From: an uncultured cyanobacterium
GTDB lineage: Bacteria > Cyanobacteriota > Cyanobacteriia > Cyanobacteriales > Nostocaceae
Length of the DNA stretch: 64,000 nucleotides
Direction: 5' to 3'
NCBI GenBank assembly: GCA_963706595.1
Contig: OY970166.1
Span: 5,088,001-5,152,000 of the forward strand
Shown here: positions 1 to 17,496 of the stretch, piece by piece
Position numbering within the stretch: the first letter of the stretch is position 1
Layout of the letters: each line of letters begins with the position of its first letter
Notes under the pieces: model-generated
The model's input: only the letters and a program-made list of their open reading frames with translations
The model's database searches: none
Told to the model about the DNA's origin: nothing
Made by a program: the position numbers and the translations under genes

Positions 1-279
1 AGCTAATAATTCTTTTCTTTCTTTAGCAGATAGTGATTTAATTGCTTTCATATCATTTTGTTTAACTAGTTTAGAGTGTAGACCATGAGTGATTCTAGCC
101 TTAGCTGCTTTACCCCCATGAGATGCACAACATTGGTAACCAATCATTACTTTATTTTTACATTGGGTGCCATCTCTTTTAATAACAGGACACCTTTGAG
201 GTTCAGGTCTTCTACCTGACTTATACCTATGTTTGTAAACTGCACTGTCTACATAGCTAGGTTTATTTTCTTGAGACAT
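1..279 (-). CDS. HGGxSTG-like Zn-binding protein, probable terminase small subunit (runs off window start)
   Basis: Not in ORF track; my translation from ATG at 279: MSQENKPS...RCPVIKRDGTQCKNKVMIGYQCCASHGGKAAKARITHGLHSK..., open to nt 1; C..C..C..HGG and HG.xS motif pattern. Confidence 0.65.
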   Translation of the reverse strand, partial: MSQENKPSYVDSAVYKHRYKSGRRPEPQRCPVIKRDGTQCKNKVMIGYQCCASHGGKAAKARITHGLHSKLVKQNDMKAIKSLSAKERKELLA

Positions 280-296
280 TTATATAGATATATTTT

Positions 297-330
297 ATAA
301 AAGTACCAGCAGACATAATCTACTGATACT
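297..330 (-). terminator. Intrinsic terminator-like hairpin after holin-like gene
   Basis: Minus strand AGUAUCAGUAGA-UUAUG-UCUGCUGGUACU followed by UUUAU. Confidence 0.55.
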
Positions 331-360
331 TTATTTTAGCTGATATTAAGTGTGTAATAA

Positions 361-741
361 TTATTTAGAAACTAGAGTTTTAATAATTTTCACATCAGTT
401 TCAATTTCAGATAACTTATTAATGATTTCAGCTTTATTACTTCTAGATTCAAAATCTATTTGAGTAAGAAGTTTAGTAGTATCTTTAGTAGTTTCAGAAA
501 AGGTTTTAACTGCCTCAGTCTGAGAAACTAAATAATGTTTAACAGATGACCATACTTCAACATTGATAAATTTAAAAAAGTATCTTGAACAGAAAGCAGT
601 AACTCCACCAACTGTAACTAAGGTAAGTAGTATTGCTAAAGGAGCGCTAGTAATTGTGTCCTTAGTAGTAAAGTAAGCATCTCTCTGAATGTCAACAGGA
701 ACTGATACCTGTGCTTGTTGTTTATTAAAATTATTATCCAT
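361..741 (-). CDS. Phage membrane protein (holin-like), one TM segment plus coiled coil
   Basis: Hydrophobic LAILLTLVTVGGVTAF; position after tail fibre. Confidence 0.45.
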   Translation of the reverse strand: MDNNFNKQQAQVSVPVDIQRDAYFTTKDTITSAPLAILLTLVTVGGVTAFCSRYFFKFINVEVWSSVKHYLVSQTEAVKTFSETTKDTTKLLTQIDFESRSNKAEIINKLSEIETDVKIIKTLVSK

Positions 742-755
742 CTTTAAACCTATTA

Positions 756-2309
756 TTAAGGTGCAATCTCCATAAGTGTTACAGAAGAATATCCTTGGTT
801 ATAAGAATTAACTAATTTGTTTATCCAAATATTTGTAATACTAGAAGCACCAAGAAAAATACCATATTCAACAAATGAAGTAGTACCAGGACTATCTAAA
901 ATATCATAAGTAATACTATTTGAGGCAATAGTAGCATCAATAGGAGTGAATCTAGTTGTTTGTAAAGTGCTACTAGTTGGGCTCATTCTTCTTAATTCCA
1001 CAATTATAACTGTACCACTTTGAACACTAAGCCCACCTAAGGAAAGTCTTATTAATATTTTGCTATTAACATTAGAAGGTTGGATAATTGTTTGTGGAAA
1101 ACCTAAGTACCCAGGGGTAGTTCCAGCTTGAGCTTGAATTTCATTACCACTACCTACTGTTACTACTTGTAATACCTTACCTCCACCACCACCTCCACTA
1201 GCAGCCGCTTGAGGTTCCCACCTGCTATTAGCAGAACTGTAAACTAATACTTGACCATCAGTAGGAGCAGCAGTATGTACATTGACTCCTCTAAGTTTGT
1301 CTGCATTCCATTGTGCAGTACCATTACCAACTTGAGCAGCAGTAACAGAGTGAGGGTTATTAGTTGCAGTTACGTGACCAGTAACAGTTGTATTTGAAGA
1401 TGCACTAGTCAATCTACCATCAGCACTAACAGTTATGTTAGCAGCGTTATAAGCTCCAGCAGTGACTCCTGAATTTCCTATTGAGGGATTAGGATATGTG
1501 CCAGTTAATGAACCTCCTGCTGATCCTGTAGGGTTTCTAGAATCAGTTAATCTAGAGTCTGAAGTATTAACTTTACCAGCTAAGAAAGTGTCTAGTTGTA
1601 GAGTGGTATAAATTTCAGAAACATCAGCTTTATCATTTAGCAAAGCATCTGTTTCTGTTTTCAAATAGTAATCAGTTAAATCAACAGAACCGCCAGCCCC
1701 AGTCTCATCAACTGCATATTCTAAAGATTGACTAGTGGAGTTATATTTTAAAACTTTACCATCCCCTATAGCAGAGTCATCTACAGCTACACCTTTAATG
1801 CGATCGCTATTCCATTGTGCAGTATCTTTACCTACCTGTGTAGCTGTTACTGAGTGAGGATTAGAAGTGCTAGCAATGTGAGCAGAAGTAGTAGACTCAT
1901 TTGCTTTACCAGTTAATAAGTTATCTACCTCAGTTTTAAGATAGTAAACAGTTAAGTCTGGACTATCAGGAATTAAGTTATCTACTTCAGTTTTAGTGTA
2001 GTAACTGGTTAAATTAGAAATATCAACTTTATCAGTTAATAAAGCATCAACTTCAGTTTGTGAATAATAAGGAATCTCTTCTGAACCTGAACCAACACTT
2101 CCTTGAGCAAGTAAGTCCCAATCTAAAGCAGTCAAGCTGGGTTCTTCACTTGTAGTCTTGTTAGCTCTATAAGATGAGCCATCATAGAAGACTCCTTGGT
2201 TGCGTCTGTATATCCTGCTAGTGACCCAATCTCCTACCCATACTACAGAAATACCATTGACAGTAGGGATAGGGCTAGAAGAAGTAGCTGGGTTAATTTC
2301 TATTGCCAT
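756..2309 (-). CDS. Tail fibre / receptor-binding protein
   Basis: N-terminal CBM5/12-like W..Y..G.V.Y.G..Y.A motif, five YYxKTEVDxLL-type repeats, two NPHSVTAxQVG repeats, poly-Gly linker and C-terminal tip domain ([10 protein letters not shown]). Confidence 0.85.
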
Positions 2310-2310
2310 A

Positions 2311-3693
2311 TTAATATCCTTTTAAAGTTCCTCTAATAAACAATTGAGTGTTAGCTTCAGTGCCAGTAATCTCAACTTTAATTACATTTGTATTAACTAA
2401 TGAATAGCTCTTAACAATAGCGTTATCAGTAGCTATCTCTCCTACTGGTTCCCAAGTAGTACCTGCTAATTCTTTTAGAACAAAGCTGACATTAGCACTA
2501 GCAACAAGTTCAATATCTAATCTCTTGTAATTCTTAGTATCAATGAACCCACCAATATAAGTCTGTACTTCAACTACAGTAGGTATACCAAAATAATCAT
2601 TATCTAAATCTAATTGGAATACAGGCACAGTGTCTTCTAATTCTGTTTGGTGATCAACTAGGTAGGATATAGTAAACTGTCCTGCTGAAGTCCATGCACC
2701 ATTAGTAGCAGTTTTCTCTATGAGTGCAGCTTTATCTTCTAATACATAAGCCCTATCAACTTGTCTTAATTCAATAGAAGATAGTTTTCTTTGATTAACA
2801 ACAGATAAGTCTCTATCTTCTTGTCTAGCAATTTCTGCTAAACTTTTATTTTTCTCAGCTTCAATTAAAACTAATCTTTCTGCTAAAGTTAATTGACCTG
2901 AGACATTACCTCCTTCAGTTTGACTAGCAGTAATAGTTAGTCTTTCCTTCCAGAACTCTTCAGCAGTAATCTCATTTAAGATTCTAATTCTCAGATAAGC
3001 AAGAATTAAAGTTTCATAATTAGTTTTACAGAGAGTAGTTAGGGTTCTATCCTTTGTGATATCTAAACCAGCAGCAGTTTGTAATTTAGTAACGGGATCA
3101 GATACTAGGAAGAATTTAACACCAGCAGCTATAGTGTTGAAAGCATCAGCATGATTAGCTGTAATAAGAGTAAGGTCATCAACATAGGATTCAGCACCCT
3201 TAGCTTGAGTATTATTAATTAACTCTAGTACAGGATTGCCTGTGCCAACGTTTCTCTCAGCTACAGTGAACATTTCTATTCTCTGCCCTGGAGTATTACC
3301 AACTAACCTTATCCTGGTAGAGTCATCAAAAGCAGTAACATCTGTATTAAAGGTAGCGTTAGCATTTATTAAAGTAGTGAGGTTTGAAGTTACATTAGCA
3401 ATGGTGGCATCAGTAGCATCAAAGGAAACACTAACGTTTTTATAAGTGAGAGAAAATCTATTACCTGTAGTTACTTGGCTAGGGTTTAAATAGATTATTT
3501 GAGAAGTAGCAGGGACAGTAGTTGTACTAGGTATAGGTCCAATATCAACTAAACCTTTAGAAACTAAATCTGTGATAGCAGCAAATGTAGTTTTCTTAAG
3601 AGTATCATCATCATACTGTACCCCATAGATATCTGCTATCTGAGGTTTCAAGTAAGCACTTTCAAATAAATCCCAATTAATTGATGTAGGCAT
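2311..3693 (-). CDS. Putative virion structural protein (460 aa)
   Basis: Tightly coupled within virion operon; beta-rich and coiled-coil segments; family not recognised. Confidence 0.6.
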
Positions 3694-3696
3694 AAA

Positions 3697-4584
3697 TTAT
3701 GTTTTTAAAATACTATTTATAGAAAGAATTGGTTTGTAACCAACGTTAGTAAAATCAAGAGCTAAAATGGCTTGTATTGTATTGTTTAAGAAATCAGGCT
3801 TTGCTAATATTTTAAGCTGACTTGATAGTATAAAACTGTTCAACTCATTAAAAGCAGCTATTTGTTTTGATTTTATTTTTTGTAAGACAATCTTCTTTTC
3901 TAAAAAAACTTCATTATCTTTACCTTGTATTGCACGTTCACTTTGTTCTTCAATAGTAAAGAAGTTTGTAGGTATCTTTCTTTGCACATAAACTTCTTTG
4001 TAGAAGCCATCAGTAAATATCTCTGGGGCTAAAAGTCCTGCTGTATAAGCATATTCAAATTGCTTAGTTTGGGAACTAGAAAAGTCACTAATCTTTTTAG
4101 TTTTAGTAGGTTTCTGAAATGTTAATTCTATATTGCCTACAAAGAACCTTCTATTTTGTATGATTTCTGTATCCCCTATTCTATAAGGGTTGAACCTTTG
4201 TTCTAGTAACCAGTCTCTATTATAAATAAATCTTAACTCTTCCCTTTCTTCTGAAGTAGGTGAATAGTCTATACCTTTAATATTATTAGGTAGAGGTACA
4301 AAAGGTTGATTTCTTAAATAGGTAGCTAATGAATCCCAAAAGGAAGGATCTTCAGTTAACTTAGTTAATAGATTGCTAATATAATTAACAACTAAAGCCT
4401 GTCTATAATTGTACCCTGCTATACCCAAGTAAGCTAAATTATTTCTAAATAATAAGAAGGCAGCTTCTCTTCTTTGAAAGATAGGAGATAGTTCATCTAC
4501 CTCCCCAAACATTATATTAAATAGCTCATCAGATACTTCTTCATCTAAAATGATATTTAAAAAGCCATCATTTAAAGTAGTCAT
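3697..4584 (-). CDS. Hypothetical phage protein (295 aa), probably virion
   Basis: 3-nt gaps to neighbouring operon genes. Confidence 0.6.
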   Translation of the reverse strand: MTTLNDGFLNIILDEEVSDELFNIMFGEVDELSPIFQRREAAFLLFRNNLAYLGIAGYNYRQALVVNYISNLLTKLTEDPSFWDSLATYLRNQPFVPLPNNIKGIDYSPTSEEREELRFIYNRDWLLEQRFNPYRIGDTEIIQNRRFFVGNIELTFQKPTKTKKISDFSSSQTKQFEYAYTAGLLAPEIFTDGFYKEVYVQRKIPTNFFTIEEQSERAIQGKDNEVFLEKKIVLQKIKSKQIAAFNELNSFILSSQLKILAKPDFLNNTIQAILALDFTNVGYKPILSINSILKT

Positions 4585-4587
4585 ATT

Positions 4588-5157
4588 TCAAATAAAGTTA
4601 AAATCAAAAGTCCCACCCACAGAAGAAATATTTATATCTGTAGCTTGTACACTGGATAATTGAATTACTAATACTCCTTCTTCTAAAATACTATTCTGTG
4701 CTACTTTAAATAACTGCCTATTGTTTTTCAAATCAAGGAAGGGTATATCAAATCTTAATTCATAAGAGTTAAGCTGGTTACCATCAGGCACTTGAGGATA
4801 CCAATAGTAAGGTATAGGGGTAATGAGTAGAACGTCAGCAGGGTTAGTATTTAATACTCCAGTAGGAAGAGTAGGTAATTCTATTCCTGGACTAATCTGA
4901 GGTCTTTTAATACTCTCTAGTAAGTATCCAGGTAAAGCCCAAGCCCTTTGAGTTTTCTCAACAATAAAAGGTCCTGAGTCTCCATTTTGTACTTCTCTAA
5001 ATCTAACTGCATAATCATCAATAAAATAATTAACTGATGATTTTATATTGCCTGAATAGTCAACTGCTAATATTCCACTAAACTGAGAGACTAAATGAGA
5101 TAATGAATTTCTTCTAGCCATTAACTCATAATGCTCAATTCCTGTAATAAGACTCAT
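4588..5157 (-). CDS. Hypothetical phage protein (189 aa), probably virion
   Basis: Overlaps upstream gene stop (ATGA coupling). Confidence 0.6.
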   Translation of the reverse strand: MSLITGIEHYELMARRNSLSHLVSQFSGILAVDYSGNIKSSVNYFIDDYAVRFREVQNGDSGPFIVEKTQRAWALPGYLLESIKRPQISPGIELPTLPTGVLNTNPADVLLITPIPYYWYPQVPDGNQLNSYELRFDIPFLDLKNNRQLFKVAQNSILEEGVLVIQLSSVQATDINISSVGGTFDFNFI

Positions 5158-7418
5158 AATGTTATACCTGATATGTCTACAAGTTGTTGAAGTACAGCTA
5201 TATCTACATCTACTCTGCTAGCTCCACCTCCTGATAAGAACCACAGTTGTCCAGCACCAGTATTAGTTTCTATACTAAAGGCACCAGATGAGTTTATTCC
5301 ATAAGTACCAATACCAGCAGATACAGGTCTACCCCTACTATCTAGAGGAACAAAAGTAGTTAAGCTATCTACATTTAAAATAGAGTTTGTATAGTTTTGA
5401 TAATTTCTAACATTGAGGTTTCTTCCTTCCCACTTCCAAAACTTTAGACAAGTGCTTTTACAGTAATCTATTAACTCTACTAAAAAGTTACTAATAGCTA
5501 ATTCATAATAATGCTGTATAGGACTTATACCTCTAATAGCCGCAGCTTGTTCAATTGAAGGCAAGTCACTAATAGCAGGCAAAGAAATAAGTTTGTTAGT
5601 TAAATAATCTTCTGTGTAATTAAAATCTAAAGGAACATCTCTTACAGTTGAACTGCTAAGTTTTATTTTACTTTCTAATAAAATAGAACTGAAAGGTAAT
5701 GTATAAGGCATCAGCTTCCACTTGTCAACATTAGTATAAGTATTAGGGATTGACTGATATACATCTTTAGCTATTTCATCTGAGAAGCTTACCCCACCAA
5801 TTAGAAAGTCTTCTGGTGAATTATTTGTCCAGTAGCTATCAGAGAAGTTTGGAACATAAGGACCAGTTGTATTACTAGATAAATTAGTAATTGTTTTTCT
5901 GGTGGTTCCGTTTACTACCACATAGCTTACTAAATAAGTAGTTGGGTTATTTGCCTGATTAAAGTTAGAACGTATTTCTAAATTAGTAATTTGATTAAAG
6001 CTTAACTTTTCACAAAATAAGCTACCACCTAAATTAACAGGACTGGCAGGATTAGTTATATCAAGTAGCTCTCCAATTAATTTACCTGGAAATGGATTAC
6101 CAGTAACTTTAAATAAAGCATTGTTATTATATGCAGGAGGAACAAAATGTCTTCCACCAGCATTAGGAGTAATAACATTACCTGTAGGATTAAAAGCAGT
6201 AAAGTTATAAATAGGTCTAGAATTTGATGCACTTACTCCCCCATGAGTAACACGAATCCTGGCAGGAAAAGGTACACCATTTCTAGTTAAAGTTAATAAT
6301 AATTCTCCATTAGGTATTTGTAATCCTTTTGTAATAGGAGAAAAATCTACTTGATAGGCAGCATTACCTGGGGTGTTACTATTGCTTGAAGGGATAAATG
6401 AGTCAACTATACAATCTTGAGTAAAATAAGAACCAGCACTTTGAATATTATCAACATTAGCAATACTATTAGTAGGTATGATTCCTCTAAATAAAGTACC
6501 TCTGTTTAGTGCGTTTATAGAAGTTGAAAAAAGTTGATAGTAAACATTAGGGTTGTCAAATTGTGCTTGAGTGGGTGTGCCACTAAAATATTTTCTAAAG
6601 TAGCTAATAGTTACTGGATCACCAAAGAACTGTGGTTGATCATATCTATGAGTAGAAGTAAAGTTTGTACCATCATAACTAGCTCTTAAGGTAAAGTTAT
6701 TATAATCAAACCAGTTAGCAACAAGAGGTGTAGTAGGTACTGGAATCTTTACATTAGTAATATCTACATTAGTTTTAAAATCTAATTGGCAGGTTATAGG
6801 TCCACCTGACATTCTAGCTATTGCTCCATAAGGTGCACTTAAACGGTTTGTAGCTAAATCAATTTCATTTCTTATATCAGGGAAATAATCAAAAACATCT
6901 ACACCTGTTAAATCATTTAAGCCAAATACTATTTCTTCTAACTGTTCACCATTTCTAAAAGAAGGAATGCCTGTAGTAAATGCTCCTGTTAATTCTCTAT
7001 TTGATATACTTGCAGTACCAGAACTGGATGTAAAGGTTACTGAATAATCATCAGGTGTAATACTTTTTATAGAGGTGGTAGTTCCACTAGCAAAGTTAAA
7101 ATAAGGTCTTTTAACCTGCCTAATAAACCCAAAGTAAGTTCTGTATGCAGCAGCCCATAGTCTCATTAAACCAAAAGGATTAATGTTATTCCTAACTAAT
7201 CCACCAGAAACCCACATATCAATTAAGCTATTAAAGTTGCTTGGGTTACCAGCTTGAGAAGATAAGCCTACAGAACATCCTGGTATGAATTGTGTGTTAG
7301 GAGGAGGATCACCAGGTCTACTTGTTAAGGCATTACCTTGAGTTAGTTCAAAGGTGCTGCTATTAGGATATCTCTTAATGAATTGAATAACTTTATTCTT
7401 ATGTAGCGGATTTGCCAT
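5154..7418 (-). CDS. Large N/T/S/F-rich phage protein (754 aa), putative tail/nozzle component
   Basis: Immediately downstream of capsid gene; beta-rich composition. Confidence 0.55.
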   Translation of the reverse strand: MANPLHKNKVIQFIKRYPNSSTFELTQGNALTSRPGDPPPNTQFIPGCSVGLSSQAGNPSNFNSLIDMWVSGGLVRNNINPFGLMRLWAAAYRTYFGFIRQVKRPYFNFASGTTTSIKSITPDDYSVTFTSSSGTASISNRELTGAFTTGIPSFRNGEQLEEIVFGLNDLTGVDVFDYFPDIRNEIDLATNRLSAPYGAIARMSGGPITCQLDFKTNVDITNVKIPVPTTPLVANWFDYNNFTLRASYDGTNFTSTHRYDQPQFFGDPVTISYFRKYFSGTPTQAQFDNPNVYYQLFSTSINALNRGTLFRGIIPTNSIANVDNIQSAGSYFTQDCIVDSFIPSSNSNTPGNAAYQVDFSPITKGLQIPNGELLLTLTRNGVPFPARIRVTHGGVSASNSRPIYNFTAFNPTGNVITPNAGGRHFVPPAYNNNALFKVTGNPFPGKLIGELLDITNPASPVNLGGSLFCEKLSFNQITNLEIRSNFNQANNPTTYLVSYVVVNGTTRKTITNLSSNTTGPYVPNFSDSYWTNNSPEDFLIGGVSFSDEIAKDVYQSIPNTYTNVDKWKLMPYTLPFSSILLESKIKLSSSTVRDVPLDFNYTEDYLTNKLISLPAISDLPSIEQAAAIRGISPIQHYYELAISNFLVELIDYCKSTCLKFWKWEGRNLNVRNYQNYTNSILNVDSLTTFVPLDSRGRPVSAGIGTYGINSSGAFSIETNTGAGQLWFLSGGGASRVDVDIAVLQQLVDISGITL

Positions 7419-7423
7419 AATAC

Positions 7424-7446
7424 TTTAAAGGGGGATTATACCCCCT
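7424..7446 (-). terminator. Hairpin/terminator after major capsid gene
   Basis: Minus strand AGGGGG-TATAAT-CCCCCT followed by TTAAA; typical position for attenuating post-capsid genes. Confidence 0.6.
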
Positions 7447-7452
7447 CACTAA

Positions 7453-8526
7453 TTAAAGGTTACTAGGTGCTGTGTAGGAAGTTGCTGTTAGTTGAAGGAC
7501 TGCACAAGCTCCACGGTGGTTAGGTGCATATCCCCAACCGTCTGTCATGATTGTGTTTTCTAAAGCAAAGTTAGACTTAACATCAACTTGTAAACCAGCC
7601 AAGCTAGAAATAGCAGGTATGCGGCTTAAGAAAGGAGTTCTGTTAGCTCCACCATCTACACCTACAGCAACTGCATAATTCAAAGGTACTACAGGTGTTT
7701 TGATAATAGGAACGTTAGAAATGAAACCTACCAAGCCTTCCCAAGGACTTAGTTGACGCATTCTTTCATTACTAGCACCACCACTTTGAATATCAAGTGA
7801 GCGTCCAATTTGATTTTCTGCTGGTACAAACTCAGGTAAAGCTTCTAAGCGGTACTCATAATCACTAACCCAGATTTCAATTTGTTTGAAACCATGATGT
7901 CTGATTTTGTCAATCAATTTGCTGCGTACATCAACAGCAGTAGGATTACCTGCACTAGCAACACCAGTGTAATGTTGTAGGTCACCTGCTACAAAGGTAT
8001 AACCATTTACACTAGGAGCAGCAACAGAGTCTGCATCATTGTAAAAAGGAATACTAGTAGTCTGGTACTTCTGAATACTGTCAATTACTACACGGTTGGT
8101 ATTAGTAAAGATAGCTTGACGTAACGCACTAAACCTAGCTTTTTGGAAAGAAGTAAGTTTGGCTTGTACATAAGAAGCTAGCTCTTCAGAGGTCATTAAC
8201 CTAACAGCTCTACTGCTCAAAGTAAGTGCAGTCATAAACTCTTCATAAGGAATTTCTTGCATGTAATCCCATACAGAAGTCCGTGAGGTAGGTCTAGCTG
8301 ATTCAGTTAGATTTTCTAAATCCTCTCCTTCATAACTTTTGATCAACTTTTGAGGAGTAGCAATTGTTTCTGTCAGAGGAGCAAAGAAACGTGCATTCAT
8401 GTCAGTGTAGTGCATGAAGTCAGAATCTAAGTCTCTGATGATACTAACAACAGACTGATTATCAATAGTGACTAGCTCAGTATCATTAGTAGAAAGTTCA
8501 CCAAAGAAAGTAGTATTGTATGCCAT
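7453..8526 (-). CDS. Major capsid protein (probably HK97 fold)
   Basis: 357 aa; position after scaffold/decoration; followed by hairpin; C-terminal DGWGYAPNHRGACAV resembles HK97-fold C-termini. Confidence 0.75.
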   Translation of the reverse strand: MAYNTTFFGELSTNDTELVTIDNQSVVSIIRDLDSDFMHYTDMNARFFAPLTETIATPQKLIKSYEGEDLENLTESARPTSRTSVWDYMQEIPYEEFMTALTLSSRAVRLMTSEELASYVQAKLTSFQKARFSALRQAIFTNTNRVVIDSIQKYQTTSIPFYNDADSVAAPSVNGYTFVAGDLQHYTGVASAGNPTAVDVRSKLIDKIRHHGFKQIEIWVSDYEYRLEALPEFVPAENQIGRSLDIQSGGASNERMRQLSPWEGLVGFISNVPIIKTPVVPLNYAVAVGVDGGANRTPFLSRIPAISSLAGLQVDVKSNFALENTIMTDGWGYAPNHRGACAVLQLTATSYTAPSNL

Positions 8527-8551
8527 ATATTTTTATTTATGTATTTATTAA

Positions 8552-8917
8552 TTAAATAGAGATTTTAATTTTGTTAGCAGTCAGAGCAACACCAACTTTA
8601 TTGGTTCCTGTACCTGCAACAATACCAGCAGCACCAGCAAAGACAGCAGTGCCAGGTGTGAGAGCTAAGGAAGTACCTTTGTTTTCAACAATGCAATCTT
8701 GCTCTACAGCTAACATAGTGCCTGCTTTACGGGCATAACGTGCTACCCCAACAGGGATAGTAGAGGCAGTTGCTAAGATAGCTAAACCAGCAGAGTTAAT
8801 GGAAACTACTGAACCTTCAGGAATGTCTACTGCTGTAACTAAATTAACAATAGAACCCTCTAAATGAGAAGAGGCAATGAATCTGTATTTGACAACGTTG
8901 TAAGCTACATTTAACAT
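8552..8917 (-). CDS. Capsid decoration/cement protein (DUF2190-like)
   Basis: 121 aa Ala/Gly/Val-rich: G.VV.I...G.A..A....PVGVA ... GTAVFA...G...VGVAL pattern. Confidence 0.7.
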   Translation of the reverse strand: MLNVAYNVVKYRFIASSHLEGSIVNLVTAVDIPEGSVVSINSAGLAILATASTIPVGVARYARKAGTMLAVEQDCIVENKGTSLALTPGTAVFAGAAGIVAGTGTNKVGVALTANKIKISI

Positions 8918-8943
8918 ATTTTTAAATTATAAGTAATTGATAT

Positions 8944-9336
8944 TTAATACCCACGCCAAGCTTTAACTTTGCGTTCTTCTTTAGTAGAAGTTTGTTGTAG
9001 TGGTACTCCAGGTTTGGTAACCACATCTTTAGTACCTGATGCTTTAGCTAATGCACCTTGTAAAGCAGCTTGAATCTTAGGTACTAAGTTTTCTTTTAAG
9101 TCTGTTTCTAGTGATAACTGTTTAGCTAAATAGTCTGCTTCTACTTCTTCTTGAGAAGAACCAGATGCTTTAATACCTAGCAGTTTAGCCATCCTTTGAA
9201 AGTCAGGTTTAGTTTTAGCTAATGCAGCTTCATAATCAATCTCAGGTGCATCAGGTGTAATAGCTTCTAAACCTAAATCTAGTTCACTTGTTTCTTCAAT
9301 GGGAGTTTGTTGTACTTCACTCATCTTCAGTTTCAA
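8944..9336 (-). CDS. Capsid scaffolding protein
   Basis: Acidic N-terminus, helical, basic C-terminus; lies between portal and capsid genes. Confidence 0.6.
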   Translation of the reverse strand: MKLKMSEVQQTPIEETSELDLGLEAITPDAPEIDYEAALAKTKPDFQRMAKLLGIKASGSSQEEVEADYLAKQLSLETDLKENLVPKIQAALQGALAKASGTKDVVTKPGVPLQQTSTKEERKVKAWRGY

Positions 9337-10745
9337 TATTATTTTCTATAGGGTCAATACTATCTTCTACAGGTTGAATAACTTTAGTGCCAGGGTTATT
9401 AATTGCCTTATCTGTAAAGATATTACCATCATCAGCATTAGCAGCATCCTTACTATCAACTAGGGCAGCACTGTATTGAATGTTAAGTCCTTTTTCTGCA
9501 TCTAGCTGTTCAAGTTCTTTGTCAGCTTCTGCTTCAGTTAGACCTTCAACTTGAATCAAGTATCTCTTTCTAGAAATAAGTTTATTCTTGACAGCTTCTA
9601 TTTGTAAACGCTTATCTTCTAAGTTTTCAGGCATCATGTCAGGCAGATCTACTCTAAAAGCTATGTCAATACCTAACTCTGAGAAAATAGTCTTAAGGGC
9701 TGAAAGAAGATAACTAGCTCTACTTAATGTAGCACGTTGTAGTGGCTCATACAACACACTAAGAGAAGATGAACTACTGGCTGATCTAGCATTCTGTAGT
9801 TCTAAGACCATGACTCCACAAAGACTATAAATATCTTGCAGAATGATTAGTCTCTGTCTTTCTAGATAAGGTGAATCTTGAGGTTGTAAATAACCAATGC
9901 GAGGAGTGATACCAAGTTCAGCCGCAGCATTACTAATAGGCAGGTGTAGAATACTAGCACCATCAGAAGTAAATGCTGTTTGAAAAGCTGATGAACCTGT
10001 AGCAGACTCTATACTCTCAAGAGGAGATGAATTAGAATCTACCAATAAATGTAGGTGCAGAAGTTCCAATTGTATAAACCTGTGGCTTGTGATGCTGTCC
10101 ATTTGTGTGGATGCGTGACCGGACTGCACAATACTCCAACTGTAAATGAATTAACCTTTCAATTGGAGATTGTGACTCTCTTCCAATGAGAGAATTTACA
10201 ACTCTTACAATAGGTATATGATCACCTAATTCTACTGGTTCAGCATTGCCTACTTTTTGAAAGTATCTGTATGCAGGTAAGTCAAATACATTTAACTCTG
10301 GGGATTCATTGGTGAGAGTTAAGTAATGCTCTACTCTTACATCAGTGTATGCATTTCTAACAGGGTCATAGACTTCTCTTTTCTCCCGCAGGTACACTAC
10401 TTGCATTGGGTTATTAGGGTCAACCTTAATTTCCTCAATGTCAAGCGTATGAATATGACGCAGCTTACCTTGAGAAACCTCAATGAAAGATTCACCAAAT
10501 ACAGGTACTTCCAAATAGACATCACTCAGGATTCTATAAAGATTAATCTCATTTAGTTTGTCATCTAATTGTTCTTGTTGCTCAGAATTGATAGCTAAGA
10601 ATTTAAGTTTTTTTTGATAGCCATCTCCCAATAAAAATCCTTTGATTTGCTCTACAACTAACTGAATTAGCTTGACTGGTAACTCTTGATTAGTAGCAGG
10701 GTTGATACCTTTGTAAGCATCAAACAATTCTTGTTTAGAACTCAT
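9317..10745 (-). CDS. Portal protein (SPP1-like), split by a +1 frameshift near 10047
   Basis: Removing one T (ACA TTTA TTG) joins ORFs 10032-10745 and 9317-10129 into ~475 aa; IPIVRVVN...SQSPIERLIHLQ and ISRKRYL...EAEADKELEQL resemble SPP1-type portals. Confidence 0.7.
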
Positions 10746-11280
10746 GTATATAAAGTTTCACTTATGTTTATTATATATCTTAATTATACAAGTAGAAAGT
10801 AGGATAAATAGGTTTTTGTATAGGGATACGTGTATGGTTTAAGGTATAGTGGCTACAGAGGGCTGGGTGAGGGGCATTCTACCCCCAGGGGGAGGTTTTA
10901 ATAAAGGTTACTCACCTCATACAACATACCCCTATTAGTCTACTTATTAAATAGGTATCAGTGTTCCTTTAAAGAAGTGCTACATTACTTTTATAATAAG
11001 TATAATGACTACTGGCTTAACAGATAGTAGTGAGTAAGTCTTACTATGTAGTGGTGTACTCCCTAAGTCTACTCAGTACAGTAGTATATGTATAGTATCA
11101 TATATACTTAGTTGTCTATTAGTTAAGCTTGACACTTCAGTAAGGATGAGTAGTATTCACTATATATAATATGTAATAGTTATCTTACAATCATCCATTA
11201 GAGTAATAGTTAGTAACTGTTCTTATATGCTTAAGTAAGTATATAGTATAGTTGTACTAACTGTATAGAGTACATACATA

Positions 11281-11426
11281 GTGTGTGTATATGTCTACTA
11301 CTATTGCTATGTGCATAGTGTGTACTGTTACTGTAGGTACTACTGTTGGTGTGTGTATATGTCTACTACTATTGCTATGTGCATAGTGTGTACTGTTACT
11401 GTAGGTACTACTGTTGGTGTGTGTAT
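11281..11426. repeat. 68-bp perfect tandem repeat, 2 copies plus 10 bp
   Basis: GTGTGTGTATATGTCTAC...TACTGTTG at 11281-11348 and 11349-11416, with restart at 11417. Confidence 0.95.
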
Positions 11427-11534
11427 GTGTATACTGTGTGTGTGTACCAGTGGTAGTAGCTGACTGTAGTAGCTGTGTGTGATGTTACTTACATAAGATT
11501 GTTTATTATTATTTATTATTATTTATTATTTGTT

Positions 11535-11834
11535 ATGGATTTAGATGTAGAGTTCCGCAATGGATGGCGACTACACAGTGCAGTGGTGGCTAGGTGGTTG
11601 GGTGTACCCCATACCCAGGTGAGGGCTACCATAGCTAACCACTACAAGGCTATAGATACAGTAGGCTATGGTCTATGGGAGTCAGGGTCAGACTACTGGT
11701 TAGAGCAATGTCATATAGACCTACTCATCTGCTACCTATTCAAAGGGGATATGCTCACCAGTCTTATGGCTACTGTCTCAGCAGAGTTTACTAACTTTAA
11801 GAAGCAGCATCTTAAATCAGGTGGCTTAGTATAA
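11535..11834 (+). CDS. Divergent Rha-like regulatory protein
   Basis: LHSAVVARWLGVPHTQVRATIANHY parallels VDSRLIASELGVLHKNLKELIKTYY of the 12561 protein; ATG at 11535 preferred. Confidence 0.5.
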   Translation: MDLDVEFRNGWRLHSAVVARWLGVPHTQVRATIANHYKAIDTVGYGLWESGSDYWLEQCHIDLLICYLFKGDMLTSLMATVSAEFTNFKKQHLKSGGLV

Positions 11835-11883
11835 GTGTACTATGCGTGATAGCTTTGCTTTGATATATGAGTAATGCTACAAA

Positions 11884-12068
11884 GTTTGCTGACTATTTAT
11901 AAGCTGTCTGACTATTACCTAAGCAATTAGCTGACTATTCATAAGCTGTCTGACTATTAGTTTGCTCTATGGTTTGCTGACAATTAGCTGGCTTTAGTAA
12001 GCTGCCTTGAGTAAACTGTCTAACCATTAGCTGCTGTCCAATAAACTGCCTCAAGTAAATTGTCAGAT
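11884..12068. repeat. Cluster of short direct repeats (iteron/operator-like)
   Basis: GCTGACTATTYATAAGCTGTCTGACTATTA x2, CTGACTATT x4, TAARCTGCCTYRAGTAAAYTGTC x2. Confidence 0.75.
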
Positions 12069-12256
12069 AAAAGTTTAGTAATTACAGTTTGCTTTGATTC
12101 TCCTTTTAGAGATTATCTATATCTATCTATTACTTGTTCTATCTCTATTAGTAAAGTATATGGTTTTGTAAGTGGTGGCGTTTTTAAAATGTATTGTAAA
12201 AGAATGCTGATAAAAGTCCTCTTATTTTTACTGCCCAATTAATACAGGTATTTATA

Positions 12257-12285
12257 TTGACTAGACTCTTAAAGAATGTTATTAT
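12257..12285 (+). promoter_or_regulatory. Sigma70-type promoter of phage early operon
   Basis: TTGACT-17 bp-TATTAT with extended -10 TGn, 34 nt upstream of ATG 12320. Confidence 0.65.
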
Positions 12286-12319
12286 TAGTAGTATAAAGAA
12301 ATTCAATAAATACACAAAT

Positions 12320-12478
12320 ATGAAACTAGATAAACTTACTTCAATCAGACTTTTTAAAGGTGACAATGACCAGCTTCAAAAGATAGCTGATGCCAAAGGT
12401 TTAGACAGAGCTGACATTATCAGAGAAGCAGTTAAGCTCTATCTGCAAGGTGAAAGAGATCAGACTTTTAGCTTTTAG
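12320..12478 (+). CDS. Ribbon-helix-helix (CopG-like) regulator
   Basis: TSIRL...QLQKIADAKGLDRADIIREAVKLYL. Confidence 0.85.
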   Translation: MKLDKLTSIRLFKGDNDQLQKIADAKGLDRADIIREAVKLYLQGERDQTFSF

Positions 12479-12560
12479 TAAATCCCTTAGTGTAGAGGAC
12501 TAACCTTTACACTCCATTCATTAAAATTATACAAATCATATATATTAAACTCACAAAACT

Positions 12561-13331
12561 ATGTCTAACTTACAAATTACAGTACAAAACATTAACTCAG
12601 AATTGGTTGTTGACTCTAGATTGATTGCTTCTGAGTTAGGGGTTCTACATAAAAATCTTAAAGAGCTAATTAAAACTTATTACGCTGACTTTTATCAACT
12701 TGGTCAGGTCGCGTTTGAAACGCAGGCTGGAGATATTAGATATGCTGAAACTTTTTATTACTTAAATGAAGACCAGTGTTATTTACTACTGACTTACTGT
12801 AAAAATACTCCTCAAGCTAGACAAGCTAAACTTAATTTAGTTAAAGCTTACAAAGCAGCTAGAAATACTGTTGATTTACCTAATAATTTAATTGATGCAG
12901 TTGAGGCTTATCTTATTGCTTTAAAAGAGAAGCAGGCTTTAGCATTGGTGGCTGCTGAGGCTCAAGAGAAGGTAAATGAGTTAACTCCTAAAGCTCAAGA
13001 TTGGGATGCTCTCTGTGACCGTGAAGGGCTGATGAATGTAGAAACTGTAGCTAAAGTTCTTTGTGTAAAAGGGTTAGGTAGAAATAATTTATTTAGATTT
13101 TTACGTGATAAGAGTATTCTAAATTTAAGCAATAACCCTTATCAAAACTTTGTAGATACAGGTTACTTTGTAATCAGAATTAAGTACAACCAATACACAC
13201 TGAAAGATGATTCTGTTACCTTAGTTACACCAAAAGGTTTTAGTTTCATTAAGCGTACACTTGAGAAAGCAGGTTATAGTATTCCTACTAATCCTACTCC
13301 TCCAGGTGCAGCAGCTCTTAAGGCAGCATAG
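12561..13331 (+). CDS. Phage antirepressor (Rha N-terminal + ANT/KilA-C domain)
   Basis: VDSRLIA..LG..HK N-terminus; PKA..WD...GRNNLFRFLR...PYQ.F.D.GYF...TLVTPKG C-terminus. Confidence 0.9.
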   Translation: MSNLQITVQNINSELVVDSRLIASELGVLHKNLKELIKTYYADFYQLGQVAFETQAGDIRYAETFYYLNEDQCYLLLTYCKNTPQARQAKLNLVKAYKAARNTVDLPNNLIDAVEAYLIALKEKQALALVAAEAQEKVNELTPKAQDWDALCDREGLMNVETVAKVLCVKGLGRNNLFRFLRDKSILNLSNNPYQNFVDTGYFVIRIKYNQYTLKDDSVTLVTPKGFSFIKRTLEKAGYSIPTNPTPPGAAALKAA

Positions 13332-13463
13332 TTAAAACAAAGAGAGGGGTAACCACTCCCCTCTCACACACAAAACATATTCTAAATTCTTACAAATAAC
13401 TATATTCTTAATTACATTATACTACATACACTACATATTATTACAGAATTATTAAAACTAAAT

Positions 13464-15018
13464 ATGAATAACGCTTATATTATTAAAACCCTTAGAAGTC
13501 CTGAATCAGTTAAGACCTACTTAGATACCTTGCTAAAAGACTTTACTAAATCTGATTATCAATTCTTTGTTCATGTTTACAGTAGCACTCTAGTATCTTT
13601 TATACAGAGAGAATCTGGTTGGGTTCCTATTAGTGCAGAATTAATTAGAAAGCAGTGGGGTAAAACAAAAATTCAGCTTGAAAAGATGAAAGAAGCTGGT
13701 CTACTAGAAATTAAGGTACTGGATCAACTTGAGCTTGCTGATGGGTTATTCCTAGAGCAAACCTATTCTAGGAAAGATGGTCTATGTCGGTGTTATAGAA
13801 CTCCTCTAGAAATAATGGAACAAATAGAGTACCATTCTCCTGATTCTTCTGAGGAATATACCACCTGCCAATATTACAATTTAATGACTGGTAAAAAAAT
13901 GAATGAGCAGGTGAGATACCTTAAAAAAGACCACAATAATAATTATCATTCTGATTTGCTTTTGGGAGCTATGGATACAATCAAAAAATGTATAGTTAAT
14001 TTAAGTGCTTTGGAGGCACATGTAGAAGCTCTAAAAGATGCGTTGAATCTTTGGTACTGAAAAAGACTTAAGGGCTTTTATTGTGGATAATTCTTGCCTT
14101 AAACGGATTAGAGAAAATCACACCCCATTAGAAAATGGTTTGGCTGAGTATCAGGTAATCTTTGGTGACCCTCAAATGTCTGGTAGATTAACTGAGCTAG
14201 GTAGTTGTATGCAGGGCTGCTCTAGAGAGATGAAAAAGCAGGGGTTCAGTGATATCCCTGGTATTAAAAACTATGATCTAAAGTCTAGTCAAGTATACGG
14301 TTTAATTCAATGGTTTGAAAAAGCTAAGATTGATACTTCTTGGTTGCATGAATACTTAGCTCAAGATAAGCAGGTATATGCTGATGCAGTAGGTATCAGT
14401 AAAGACAGATGGAAGCAGTGCTTTATGGCACTAATTATGGGAGGTTACTTACAAGAAAATGTAAAAGCTAAGAACTTTGAAGTGGTTAAGGTTGTTAAAA
14501 AGATAAGAGGACAATTGATAGAGCAGGAAGACTACCCTAATGTAGCTCTCATCAGGGCTTTATGTCAGGAAGCTAAAGGGAATCCAGATTTAGCTCTGAC
14601 ATATTACACTAGGTTTGCTCAAGTGGTAGCTCCCTTGAAGGCTTGTATTGATGCTTGGCAAGAATGGATGCTAACAAAGTATATCCCAGATGAATCTTTT
14701 TACGCTCATAGCCAGCAGTTACTTGTAAATAAGACAGGTAAAACTTTTAACTTAACAGAGTATCAGACTAAGGGGGAGTGGGATAAAAAGAAAGTTAACA
14801 AAATGAAAAGAAGGCTCTCAGCTTTCCTTCTGCAAGGCACAGAGGCAGCTTATATACATCACCTAACTGTAATCAGTAAGGACTTTGGGTACAGAGTCCT
14901 AAGTAATCAGCATGATGGTTTGGTAACAATTGGAGAGATACCTAGAGAAGCAATGGATATAGCTAAACGCAACTCAGGTCTAAAGTATGCTTACCTAGAG
15001 GAGAAGGCTTTTGTTTAA
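13464..15018 (+). CDS. Family A polymerase-like protein (TV-Pol/primase-polymerase-like), +1 frameshift at ~14046-14058
   Basis: SGRL...MQ, motif A YDLKSSQ, motif B KQCFMALIMGG, LQGTEA, motif C QHDGL; second frame is open from 14047; fused ~517 aa. Confidence 0.7.
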
Positions 15019-15393
15019 CCCATAGAGGTTGATACACCAGTAGACTGAATCAAAGGGGAGGGGTCATGAAGACTGCTCTCTTTTTGACTTGGGGGGCTGG
15101 AATCCTGATTTTGCAAAATTTTAGATATAAACAGGGGGGGTCAGGAAAGAGAGGGAACCAGGAGAACAGGAGACAGGAAGGGGGTATCAGGCAGGGAAGC
15201 AGAGTGAAGAAGACTCATATAAGGTATGTATGGCATAGTCTGTACTACACTATAGCTATAACCCTTACCCAGTAAAGATTACAGGCTATAAACTCCATGA
15301 GTTACGTAGAAGTAAACCCATAATAATAGTATTAAAAAGTACCTAATTTAATATAAGTAGGTACTCTATAATATACCCAAGTATATCTAAGCG

Positions 15394-15591
15394 TTAAATG
15401 TTGCTTTGTGTAGGGGAATAATTTGGTTTACTATAATACACTTTCTCTAAAGCTGAAGGAGAATGGTATCTGGGAGGGTTATGTTTATAGTTTCCTCTTA
15501 AACAAGATTTTACGTTTCCTATTAACAAAAAACAAAGAAGAGTAAGGATAGCATTAACTATTGGTCCCCCTTCATCACTGTTATTTGACAT
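15394..15591 (-). CDS. Small phage membrane protein
   Basis: 65 aa with one hydrophobic segment; weak support. Confidence 0.4.
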   Translation of the reverse strand: MSNNSDEGGPIVNAILTLLCFLLIGNVKSCLRGNYKHNPPRYHSPSALEKVYYSKPNYSPTQSNI

Positions 15592-15740
15592 ACATTTATT
15601 GTTTTGAGTTGAAATTTAAGCACCTAAACCTTAATGTAAGATATTCCCTAAACGCTAGATAGAGAAAAATTACTGAAATGTATCTTCATCTAAGCTTCAT
15701 GAGCCAACTACAAGATTAGCTGACTCATTAAGTTAATTTT

Positions 15741-15962
15741 TTAATCCATTCCAATTAGATAAAGTCTTATGTAAAGTTCATTTAACCTTGCATAAATCTT
15801 AGAGAAATCAGCGTTTAGGACTTTCCTGCTCAGTTCTTCTAGATAGGGTTGATTATACTCAAAACCCTTATCACATTCCTTTAAAACATGAATAGTATAA
15901 TTCAACTCTTCAACAGAAATCTCTAATGCTTCAACTATTTCTTTTACTTTTTGGTTGTGCAT
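15741..15962 (-). CDS. Hypothetical phage protein
   Basis: 73 aa helical ORF directly downstream of integrase, same strand. Confidence 0.5.
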   Translation of the reverse strand: MHNQKVKEIVEALEISVEELNYTIHVLKECDKGFEYNQPYLEELSRKVLNADFSKIYARLNELYIRLYLIGMD

Positions 15963-16015
15963 GATAGATAAATATCCTAAACTAAATGGGTTTTCTGGAA
16001 TGATTATTTGATTGC

Positions 16016-17092
16016 TTACAATTCAGGTAACTTAGGTTTTTTAATACTGCCTAGATAATGTCTAAAGATTATCTCAGGGCTGTTACCAACCAAGTCTGCC
16101 ACCTCATGAGGAGGAATACCACTGCTAATACAATGGCTAATAAAGGTTGACCTACAAACATAGAGTGGACGGTGAGGAATACCTAAGTTTTCCAAAGTTA
16201 TCTTCCAACACCGTTGACCTATATTGTGATCATCAAGTGGTAGACCTTTAGGTGAAGTAAAAATCAACTCTTGTTTATTCTTTGCCTCAGACCTAACCTT
16301 TAGTATTTGGTACACCTTGCTATTCATAGGTACAATCCTATAAACATTTGTTTTGGTGGTCTTCCTGACTCTTTTAGAGCTTCTACCTTTAACTTTATTC
16401 AGAGTTTCATAGACATGAATTTCCCTTTTCTGTAGGTCAATATCCTGCCACCTCAAACCAATTGCTTCACTAAGGCGTAACCCAGTGTTAAGTAACAGTA
16501 GTATAAAATCATGATAGTGATTGTAAAAAGGATCTCTTTGTAGAGAACTCAGAATCATATCCACTTCATTAGTGGTCAGTGGTTTAGCTCTAGGTTTATC
16601 TGGAACCTTGACCTGAAAGCTACCAAACAAATCTTTCCTAAGCACCTGCAAAATAGCTAGGTATCTTTTCTTACTATTCTTTTTAATACCCCTACCATCA
16701 AGCCAGTCTAGAAACTCCTTAGCATCCACACTGGTTTTGATTTGCTTCTTATATCCTTGCAGGAGTTTGAGTAGGGATTGGTCAGCAGAATTGTAGTTAT
16801 CAGCAATCCGTAGCTGAAGCATTTCAATTAGTGGAGGAAACCTTGATTCAGGAGGCTTGCTACCACCATTGCCACCATAAGTAATGCCCTGTAACCAGAG
16901 CTTATACTTGTTGAGTGTAGGATCAAATTGACCTATCAAACAATCCTGGTATATTAACTTACCACAGTAATCTAGCCTAGCTCTCTCTGAGGTATCTTCC
17001 CACGCACCCCAAGTTAGACTGTACCTTTCATCCTGATAAGTCCATCTGAGAATGCAAGAATTACCATTCTTCTGAACCTTTATTTGCCGCAC
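16016..17092 (-). CDS. int: Tyrosine recombinase/integrase with N-terminal arm-binding domain
   Basis: TGLRLSEAIGLRWQDID, KT.KT, YVCRSTF, GNSPEIIFRHY catalytic motifs. Confidence 0.95.
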   Translation of the reverse strand: MRQIKVQKNGNSCILRWTYQDERYSLTWGAWEDTSERARLDYCGKLIYQDCLIGQFDPTLNKYKLWLQGITYGGNGGSKPPESRFPPLIEMLQLRIADNYNSADQSLLKLLQGYKKQIKTSVDAKEFLDWLDGRGIKKNSKKRYLAILQVLRKDLFGSFQVKVPDKPRAKPLTTNEVDMILSSLQRDPFYNHYHDFILLLLNTGLRLSEAIGLRWQDIDLQKREIHVYETLNKVKGRSSKRVRKTTKTNVYRIVPMNSKVYQILKVRSEAKNKQELIFTSPKGLPLDDHNIGQRCWKITLENLGIPHRPLYVCRSTFISHCISSGIPPHEVADLVGNSPEIIFRHYLGSIKKPKLPEL

Positions 17093-17095
17093 TAT

Positions 17096-17115
17096 CTTAT
17101 GTCACCTTATGGCAG
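17096..17115. promoter_or_regulatory. Putative integrase arm-type binding sites
   Basis: Tandem CTTATGTCAC / CTTATGGCAG between the att core and the integrase start. Confidence 0.4.
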
Positions 17116-17170
17116 AACATAGGATAGCCTTAGAAATTAGTGTGCTTATATAGCTGTTTCTGGGGGTTAG

Positions 17171-17214
17171 TTCTCAATGCCATTGAGACGCGCTACCAAC
17201 TGTGCTATAGCCCC
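17171..17214 (-). tRNA. 5' half of tRNA-Ala(GGC), truncated after the anticodon arm (prophage att junction)
   Basis: GGGGCTA TA GCAC AGTTGGTA GCGC G TCTCA ATGGCAT TGAGA A, then no T-arm or acceptor 3' strand; A32-U38 loop typical of Ala(GGC). Confidence 0.9.
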
Positions 17215-17228
17215 TCGGATTCTTATCT

Positions 17229-17257
17229 ATAATCTCTTAATATTTGAGCTTTGTCAA
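17229..17257 (-). promoter_or_regulatory. tRNA promoter
   Basis: TTGACA (17257-17252)-17 bp-GATTAT upstream of the tRNA 5' end. Confidence 0.55.
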
Positions 17258-17304
17258 GCCGGATTTATTAAATGTAAAGTTTATCTTCTGTGACAGGGGA
17301 TTTT

Positions 17305-17496
17305 TTAGGACACTTGTAACAAATAGGTCATACAGTGTCCCATGAGGAAATAAACTACCAACATAGCAGCAGCTGCCAGCGCCACTAATGTCCCAGCCAG
17401 CATGAGAGAGAACTCTTTATACTGTACGGCTTTTTCCATTAGGTGCAGCGACCATGCCACCAGCGCTACGTCAAATAGTAAAATAACAATCAACAT
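17305..17496 (-). CDS. Small two-TM membrane protein
   Basis: 63 aa with two hydrophobic helices, downstream of hisF. Confidence 0.65.
   Translation of the reverse strand: MLIVILLFDVALVAWSLHLMEKAVQYKEFSLMLAGTLVALAAAAMLVVYFLMGHCMTYLLQVS

Follow-up and report, generated by a model that had tools for sequence, protein, structure and literature searches.

The polymerase-like gene described here belongs to a prophage of about 20.3 kb that is integrated in tRNA-Ala(GGC) and bounded by a 44-bp repeat, in a 64,000-nt stretch of DNA (hereafter, the window) from an uncultured cyanobacterium of the family Nostocaceae. The features of the prophage, in window coordinates, are the following:

1..10745, minus strand, virion and packaging genes (portal, major capsid, cement, tail fibre)
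11313..11394, plus strand, two more box-A-like cores, at 11313 and 11381, within a direct repeat of 68 nt; no purine tract
12257..12478, plus strand, ribbon-helix-helix regulator upstream of the polymerase gene (Pfam RHH_1, E 5.8e−5)
12561..13331, plus strand, Rha + KilA-C antirepressor, directly upstream; the same neighbour is found in several Nostocales relatives
13464..14060, plus strand, N-terminal half of the polymerase gene (198 aa), with a probable winged-helix domain (about residues 15–145) and the start of the thumb
14027..14055, plus strand, net +1 frameshift region in a variable linker, with a one-base excess in DNA alignments against relatives
14047..15018, plus strand, C-terminal half, a 323-aa open frame with predicted family-A palm and fingers and both catalytic Asp
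15129..15213, plus strand, purine-rich, C-poor tract of 85 nt, candidate unwinding or template region of an origin
15229..15248, plus strand, box A, clade-specific (core 15233–15246), candidate binding or start site
15255..15285, no strand assigned, degenerate 31-bp palindrome, candidate site of a host architectural protein, also present elsewhere in the host chromosome
15290..15303, plus strand, box B, clade-specific, past the palindrome; kept within one phage and different between phages (by eye)
16016..17092, minus strand, tyrosine integrase (Pfam Phage_integrase, E 4.4e−22)
17171..17214, minus strand, right att site, a repeat of 44 bp identical to the 5′ portion of tRNA-Ala(GGC)

The left partner of the att repeat was located about 3.05–3.1 kb (3053–3096 nt) before the window start, inside an intact tRNA. 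The repeat corresponds to the 5′ part of the tRNA gene, unlike the usual 3′ part; the complete tRNA, whose 5′ half comes from the phage, stands at the distant left end, and the 5′ fragment that was displaced is found a short way upstream of the integrase, in the same orientation. A small terminase candidate crosses the window start with the large terminase just outside, and beyond the window the left arm has just these two genes, the small terminase being a probable assignment, and an ORF of 110 aa. Neither Pfam nor PHROGs recognised a helicase, primase, SSB or other polymerase anywhere in the 20.3-kb prophage, in which several ORFs are unannotated. This agrees with the preliminary description of the locus, which had seen no replication gene between the antirepressor and the integrase, and its suggestion of a stand-alone enzyme is strengthened by the left arm, where no replisome gene was recognised either. 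As far as annotation goes, the polymerase-like gene is the only recognisable replication gene of the prophage. An Rfam search over 10700–17400 returned the tRNA fragment only, and GC skew along the prophage was uninformative. An unusual TA/GT-rich non-coding stretch at 10950–11470 holds the 68-nt direct repeat with its two box-A-like cores, which were not found in the copies of G003, L001 and L002, and may serve as a late promoter, a packaging region or a set of additional binding sites. Between the antirepressor and the polymerase gene there is a GC-rich hairpin (13342–13365), accompanied on the minus strand by a T-run; relatives have hairpins of this kind, which possibly control read-through.

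The gene occupies 13464–15018 (1555 nt, i.e., 3 × 518 + 1), and ORF analysis placed it in two frames separated by a net +1 frameshift: the first ORF stops at a TGA (14058–14060), while the polymerase half is read in the +1 frame, which is open from position 14047. Reading TGA as tryptophan was considered and rejected, as this recoding leaves the frame closed and the break is therefore a frameshift. The fused protein of ~517 aa assumed in the preliminary description thus exists in relatives but not in the window; the first reading had missed the status of the frameshift, the adjacent cis element and the probable nature of the N-terminal domain. A protein search with the C-terminal half retrieved 55 proteins, mostly of 460–560 aa, and intact relatives of the split gene measure about 500–520 aa, the closest being P0002 (517 aa; 77% identity with the N-terminal and 85% with the C-terminal half). 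In genome G003 the related prophage occupies the same site, and its polymerase and portal genes are intact; the window, in comparison, has frameshifts in these two genes and in a nearby host gene at 23154. The portal gene (9317–10745) is broken by one base near 10038 and is a single ORF of 453–482 aa in relatives, and the host gene (22356–23763; 481 aa in G003, 88–95% identical) is frameshifted near 23154, a sign of assembly indels. Among 163 host orthologs drawn from 18 G003 stretches, five were frameshifted and seven had an internal stop in the window's assembly, which is rated 94% complete despite being a single contig. The dN/dS ratios were 0.12–0.25 in both gene halves and 0.20–0.21 in intact pairs, values by which both halves appear to be under purifying selection. 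Taken together with the frameshifted host genes, this selection marks the polymerase break as a recent mutation or an assembly error, and the window's copy is dead unless the latter applies.

All five family-A motifs quoted in the preliminary description (SGRLTELGSCMQG, YDLKSSQ, KQCFMALIMGG, LQGTEAAYI and QHDGL) were recovered, in that order, from the ORF ending at 15018. Conservation was scored in 183 homologs (all those of at least 380 aa among 191, leaving out the window's own fragment) with residues numbered as in the intact relative P0002. G240, R241, N269, D271, K317, N422, E460, D484, G485 and K514 are 99% conserved and Q457 is conserved in 97%; with R241, D271, K317, E460, D484 and Q457 retained to this degree, the motif match is far beyond chance. 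Both catalytic Asp are thus present, as originally claimed, in the form of D271 and D484, which were assigned through motif order, secondary structure and HHalign and not by residue-level superposition. In the model of the intact relative D271 sits at a strand end and D484 in a beta-hairpin, and the LQG/HD region aligned with the host PolA at an HHalign E of 0.044.

The same 183 homologs depart from PolA at several active-site positions. The steric-gate Glu is replaced by Gln (94%) or His (5%), the motif-B Tyr by Met (74%) or Phe (15%), the motif-B Arg is missing (position 313 is Val in 53% and Lys in 20%, K317 being kept in 99%), and motif C reads HDG, lacking the third carboxylate of PolA. 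The exchanges of Glu for Gln and Tyr for Met had been proposed to be compatible with rNTP use, a view not supported by a study on the Klenow fragment, where E710Q and Y766A are mutators and do not raise fingers-closing with A-rUTP (K2 0.056 and 0.059 vs 0.083 in the wild type), an effect that E710A does have (K2 0.16; PMC3715850, Table 1). By analogy with this one distant enzyme, the two exchanges suggest low fidelity rather than rNTP use, and catalysis may be slow, given the absent motif-B Arg and the mutator-type equivalents of E710 and Y766.

AlphaFold was run on 48 sequences with P0002 in the lead (pLDDT 90.3). In structure searches, residues 148–517 of the model resembled family-A DNA polymerases, with Z scores of 17.8 (Pol theta) and 17.5 (Klenow) in a wide search and up to 19.3 in a second look (rmsd 3.4–4.2 Å over about 300 residues), and the palm and fingers fold expected from the motifs is accordingly present in the model. 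Single-subunit RNA polymerases scored Z 7–11 (best 11.4 for the yeast mitochondrial and 11.2 for the T7 enzyme), some of these matches (mitochondrial, T7, N4) reaching into the N-terminal part. The intact relative is therefore predicted to have a family-A palm/fingers/thumb fold nearer to DNA polymerases than to single-subunit RNA polymerases, with a two-helix antiparallel thumb (helices 180–195 and 199–217) placed before the Arg hairpin. The model also supports the earlier statement that an exonuclease domain is missing: no 3′–5′ exonuclease was seen, and the roughly 150 residues before the polymerase core were modelled as a winged-helix-like domain. The N-terminal domain, listed as unknown in the preliminary description, is probably a winged helix, which we treat as a lead. 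Its predicted topology (helix-strand-helix-helix-long hairpin, residues 15–145) is of the winged-helix type, and its matches, to the ORC2 winged helix (Z 6.3), MotA (Z 5.6) and clusters of RepA_N, IncFII RepA and HTH_36 (TM 0.37–0.50), are weak, scoring as common arrangements do and too low to exclude chance. Folded alone from a single sequence, the domain gave an unusable model (pLDDT 38).

A profile search showed the family to comprise 1,243 clusters at 50% identity, 526 of them at E ≤ 1e−30, with a patchy occurrence (seen in two of 60 relatives and in two of 400 genomes from the phylum) and distant members in large phages of Dickeya, Erwinia and Vibrio. Pfam (48 members searched) and NCBIfam (41 members) gave nothing informative, PHROGs matched only the unknown-function families 30690 and 34692, and the PDB searched by sequence with profile A1 returned no match at E ≤ 10. 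In the entire genome of Ma-LMM01 the profile matched exactly one protein, gp30 (E 7e−37), which aligned with the family over 406 columns, N-terminal domain included (HHalign 99.7%). Although gp30 (L139:22746–24266) adjoins the transposase genes gp31/32, it is at least 97% identical in all nine Microcystis-phage records found and thus acts as a phage core gene and not as cargo of the adjacent IS. Iyer, Abhiman and Aravind listed Ma-LMM01 in 2008 among the carriers of TV-Pols, proposed these enzymes to be primase-polymerases, and set apart a subset that carries a globular N-terminal domain and is linked to integrases, resolvases, transposases and a KilA-C protein (PMC2579912). Judged by these sequence matches, gp30 is very probably the TV-Pol named in 2008, and the window's family is very probably the N-domain branch of TV-Pol and not a new enzyme class, which bears out the TV-Pol link drawn in the preliminary description.

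Directly 3′ of the gene lies an element (15129–15303) composed of the tract, box A, the palindrome and box B. The 14-nt core of box A occurs three times in the 5.57-Mb genome, always within the prophage. The palindrome matrix found 28 sites of at least 15 bits in host genome G000 vs 7 in one shuffle, so that the palindrome looks like the site of a host protein. Some of the host copies follow a shared upstream sequence, and the palindrome is a candidate site for a cyanobacterial IHF-like protein; IHF of the E. coli type is absent from Synechocystis (PMC6607411). Across 35 tracts we counted 128 C in about 2,990 nt, and T was followed by A in 167 of 221 cases compared with 423 of 1,566 in 270 host tracts, which leaves the opposite strand rich in CTA, TTA and CTG. 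Primases of other bacteria start at these triplets; the bias could also reflect the base composition of the phage. A promoter and terminator scan of 13250–15500 detected 11 promoter-like sites (7.0 ± 2.7 after shuffling), none of them at the element.

The association of the element with the gene was examined in 51 loci, selected from 80 distinct ones for a near-complete gene with 800 nt on each side, a tract being defined as a 60-nt window with at least 50 purines on one strand no more than 800 nt from the gene. At this threshold, which was picked after the data were seen, a tract lay near the gene in 30 of the 51 loci vs 7 of 276 control ORFs of the same loci; the counts were 32/51 vs 17/276 at a threshold of 48 and 24/51 vs 4/276 at 52. 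With one locus per 60%-identity clade, the tract was present in 17 of 33 vs 2 of 165 controls (Fisher p 1e−13). In the host chromosome 7.8% of 1.6-kb blocks pass the same definition, the examples shown being short tandem repeats. The remaining 21 loci (16 clades) had no tract at threshold, many of them GC-rich non-cyanobacterial islands, and it was likewise absent from L081 (score 42) and from the large-phage homologs (44–46). Where present, the element stands upstream or downstream of the gene, in either orientation and in one to three copies (three in L004, L005 and L029; two in L003, L009, L011, L013 and L031), an arrangement that fits an origin and not the gene's own promoter. Between copies within one phage the tract and the palindrome drift and boxes A and B are fixed (by eye); between clades the boxes differ. 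Box A was common to 15 pairs with 51–91% N-domain identity and different in pairs at 59% or less, a co-variation of box and protein that is equally expected from shared descent. Scans with box A only gave 86 matches, of which eight had an upstream tract, all in gene-bearing loci, and the other 78 were without tract or gene; the eight come from two contigs matching the motif's source phages and are weak in that respect. Two long element patterns, probably too strict, had no match in viral contigs. In L019:9575–11929 the gene takes a 784-aa fusion form with the purine tract inside the ORF, and several other homologs have N- or C-terminal extensions of 100–300 aa.

Gene and tract also occur together on two circular plasmids with virion genes absent and no Rep annotated or recognised: Calothrix NIES-4105 plasmid6 (13.7 kb; an intact 574-aa ORF across the record origin, and a serine recombinase) and a Synechocystis B12 plasmid (33 kb; ParA, with the polymerase-like gene split). 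On either plasmid the true Rep could be one of the unannotated ORFs. On the Calothrix plasmid, two overlapping unannotated ORFs (L036:4398–4787 and 3749–4453) had no Pfam or PHROGs match; the first resembles an initiator-type N-terminal domain (by eye) and could be an alternative Rep. Rep proteins of several cyanobacterial plasmids are still unknown (PMC10899382). Further plasmid searches with three other seeds recovered just the same two of 72,556 records. In a survey of 32 clade representatives, covering 180 ORFs of at least 200 aa located 6 kb or less from the gene, an integrase or resolvase was present in 15 of the 32 neighbourhoods, a VapE-like gene in two and an NrS-1-type helicase/primase gene in one; none of the 180 ORFs belonged to a D5 or DnaB Pfam family. 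In phage L081 the gene adjoins ParA. The family is found beside integrases and resolvases in other phyla, on the two plasmids and in large lytic phages, which keep homologs in addition to their own replication genes, so that the undescribed cyanophage group envisaged earlier was too narrow a frame. Other neighbours included a 210-aa GIY-YIG-like homing endonuclease ORF (by eye) near or directly before the gene (L002:9249–9881, L004, L028), a CBASS-like pair (SMODS + S_4TM) in a gene-bearing integrative element (L089:981–2956), and type I restriction genes flanking an element with the polymerase-like gene (L012, L014).

An orientation-free, clade-specific element, a sole candidate replication gene and a strand-asymmetric tract beside a protein-binding cassette together have the anatomy of an origin. 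We consider the chance slightly better than even that the gene encodes a one-protein initiator, namely an origin-binding primase-polymerase of the TV-Pol branch, with the element at 15129–15303 as its origin and unwinding left to the host. Beyond the co-occurrence of gene and element, we infer the following steps. The N-terminal winged helix would bind the phage-specific boxes A and B, which a host protein at the palindrome may bring together by bending the DNA; the palm would then initiate a new strand close to box A (de novo, probably from dNTPs and at low fidelity) and extend it through the tract, the direction of synthesis being a guess. The exposed pyrimidine-rich strand could serve to load the host helicase, primase and replicative polymerase, which would copy the rest. 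Such an enzyme would work like ColE2-type Rep proteins, yet with a PolA fold. The initiator is favoured by the predicted family-A fold with both catalytic Asp and no other recognisable replication gene, by the N-domain look-alikes (RepA_N, IncFII RepA, the ORC2 winged helix; all weak), by the linkage to the tract, the virion-free plasmids and the ParA neighbour in L081, and by primer synthesis in CcPol (PMC7581432). The tract-less loci, the large-phage homologs, the three of 32 neighbourhoods with helicase/primase-type genes, the weak winged-helix scores, the perhaps slow catalysis and the unannotated plasmid ORFs count against it. More tentatively, and a little short of an even chance, phages, integrative elements and plasmids of several phyla may share an unrecognised replicon class defined by a PolA-fold protein with a winged helix, a composite origin and no phage helicase, primase or SSB.

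Two alternatives would assign the element to RNA synthesis. R-loop priming has precedents in ColE1 and in mitochondrial replication, and a G/A-rich, C-poor strand favours stable RNA:DNA hybrids; here the enzyme, or the host RNA polymerase, would make a purine-rich RNA over the tract that primes DNA at box A. The C-poor composition of the tract strand, the start of most tracts at a pyrimidine followed by AG, AA or GA and the hairpin-plus-T-run sequences preceding several of them (both by eye) are consistent with this, as is the HDG form of motif C, but the gate residue is Gln or His and not small, Klenow E710Q shows no rUTP preference (PMC3715850), and the fold is nearer to DNA polymerases, which leaves the R-loop an unlikely candidate, though ahead of the other alternatives. 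The enzyme could instead be a single-subunit phage RNA polymerase whose repeated elements are promoters driving late genes. Phage-specific sequences in up to three copies would suit promoters, the structural matches to mitochondrial, T7 and N4 enzymes extend to the N-terminal part, one reading direction of the elements in L009, L011, L029 and L031 faces virion genes, and a comparable role was floated for divPolA2 (PMC11348598, section 13). Since copies within one phage face both ways (L004, L005), the single full copy in the window comes after the gene, with the closest virion gene about 4.4 kb away, the element is also carried by plasmids without late genes, and the motif-B Tyr is replaced by Met or Phe, we regard a transcription enzyme as improbable.

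The other two alternatives concern how much of replication the protein would perform. At one extreme it would be a self-sufficient replicase, able to prime and, by strand displacement, copy all 20 kb of the genome independently of the host replisome; it is the sole polymerase of the prophage, TV-Pols were put forward as primase-polymerases (PMC2579912), and the inverted element copies in L004 and L005 could start both strands. An enzyme with no proofreading domain, a mutator-type active site and a short two-helix thumb, with no SSB or helicase recognised around it and one full element in the window prophage, is ill suited to this task, and we rate it the least probable of the readings. At the other extreme it would be a polymerase with an accessory part in repair or gap filling, or else a DNA-binding protein with weak catalysis, and the element a recombination or packaging site travelling with the gene. 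The integrases and resolvases in 15 of 32 neighbourhoods, the resemblance of the palindrome to a general host site and the large-phage homologs without a tract fit such a role; yet the element hugs the polymerase gene and not the att sites or the terminase, it occurs on plasmids without packaging genes, and the prophage would be left with zero replication genes, so that little probability remains for it, about as much as for the transcription enzyme.

In the literature covered, which took in few subscription papers, neither a cis element of this branch nor its use as sole replication gene in temperate phages was described; to that extent these two points are new here, the kind of polymerase being already known. 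The cognate, clade-specific element would be the missing substrate that makes the TV-Pol primase proposal of 2008 directly testable. If the one-protein initiator is correct, it would account for the replication of these small cyanobacterial prophages and assign a function to more than 1,200 clusters for which Pfam and NCBIfam offer no informative match; it could also supply cyanobacterial vectors with a compact replicon of 2 kb and mutually distinct origins. The broader replicon class, if true, would constitute a third solution to origin-specific priming beside DnaG and the AEP Rep proteins.

Compared with known systems, the family shares with TV-Pols the minimal family-A core without a nuclease, a length of 400–600 aa, the hairpin Arg (R241 here, 99%), the two Asp, a two-helix antiparallel thumb and a neighbourhood of tyrosine integrases, resolvases, transposases and KilA-C proteins. 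It differs in lacking the Arg of the TV-Pol fingers motif RxxxK, which gp30 lacks as well, so the motif may not hold for the N-domain branch, and in the N-terminal domain, which was predicted as all-helical in 2008 and is modelled here as an alpha/beta winged helix. The other TV-Pol subset has a D5-like helicase as fusion or neighbour, and none is seen in the window's prophage; further differences are that a complete tailed prophage here has the window's gene as its one recognisable replication gene and that the main text of the TV-Pol paper mentions no cis element except direct repeats of ~200 nt around a Brucella element (PMC2579912). CcPol, the only TV-Pol assayed as of 2020 (PMC7581432), makes DNA primers with a partner protein, and the CcPol-MP and PolA-SSB primases of SCCmec likewise use a mobile-element family-A domain to start strands de novo (PMC7581432; PMC10061031). 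CcPol keeps the E710 and F762 equivalents, whereas the window's family has a Gln gate, and it depends on a separate SSB of the OB fold and has a helicase beside it, in contrast to the fused N-terminal domain found here, with neither neighbour conserved. The divPolA2 proteins of barbaviruses and ICP1-like phages also combine an exonuclease-less PolA palm with an N-terminal globular domain, as described in PMC11348598 (section 13). Their one representative compared, AUR84708, accompanies a PolB and has no flanking tract (41/60). Identity with divPolA2 was rejected, as AUR84708 reached an HHalign probability of 0.2% against the family profile and gave no profile match. CyRepX was also rejected, being helicase-like by its published description. 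T7-like RNA polymerases have the same superfamily fold, but they exceed 800 aa vs about 500 here and gave lower structural scores than DNA polymerases; their small gate residue and retained motif-B Tyr have no counterpart in this family, with its bulky gate and lost Tyr. Canonical PolA enzymes (Pol I, T7 DNAP) possess the gate Glu, the motif-B Tyr and a 3′–5′ exonuclease, all three absent here, and RepA-type winged-helix initiators have no polymerase domain. The closest likeness in proposed logic is to ColE2-type Rep, an origin-binding primase of the AEP primase fold that makes a short RNA primer: in both cases one protein would bind its cognate origin and prime, and the host would complete replication.
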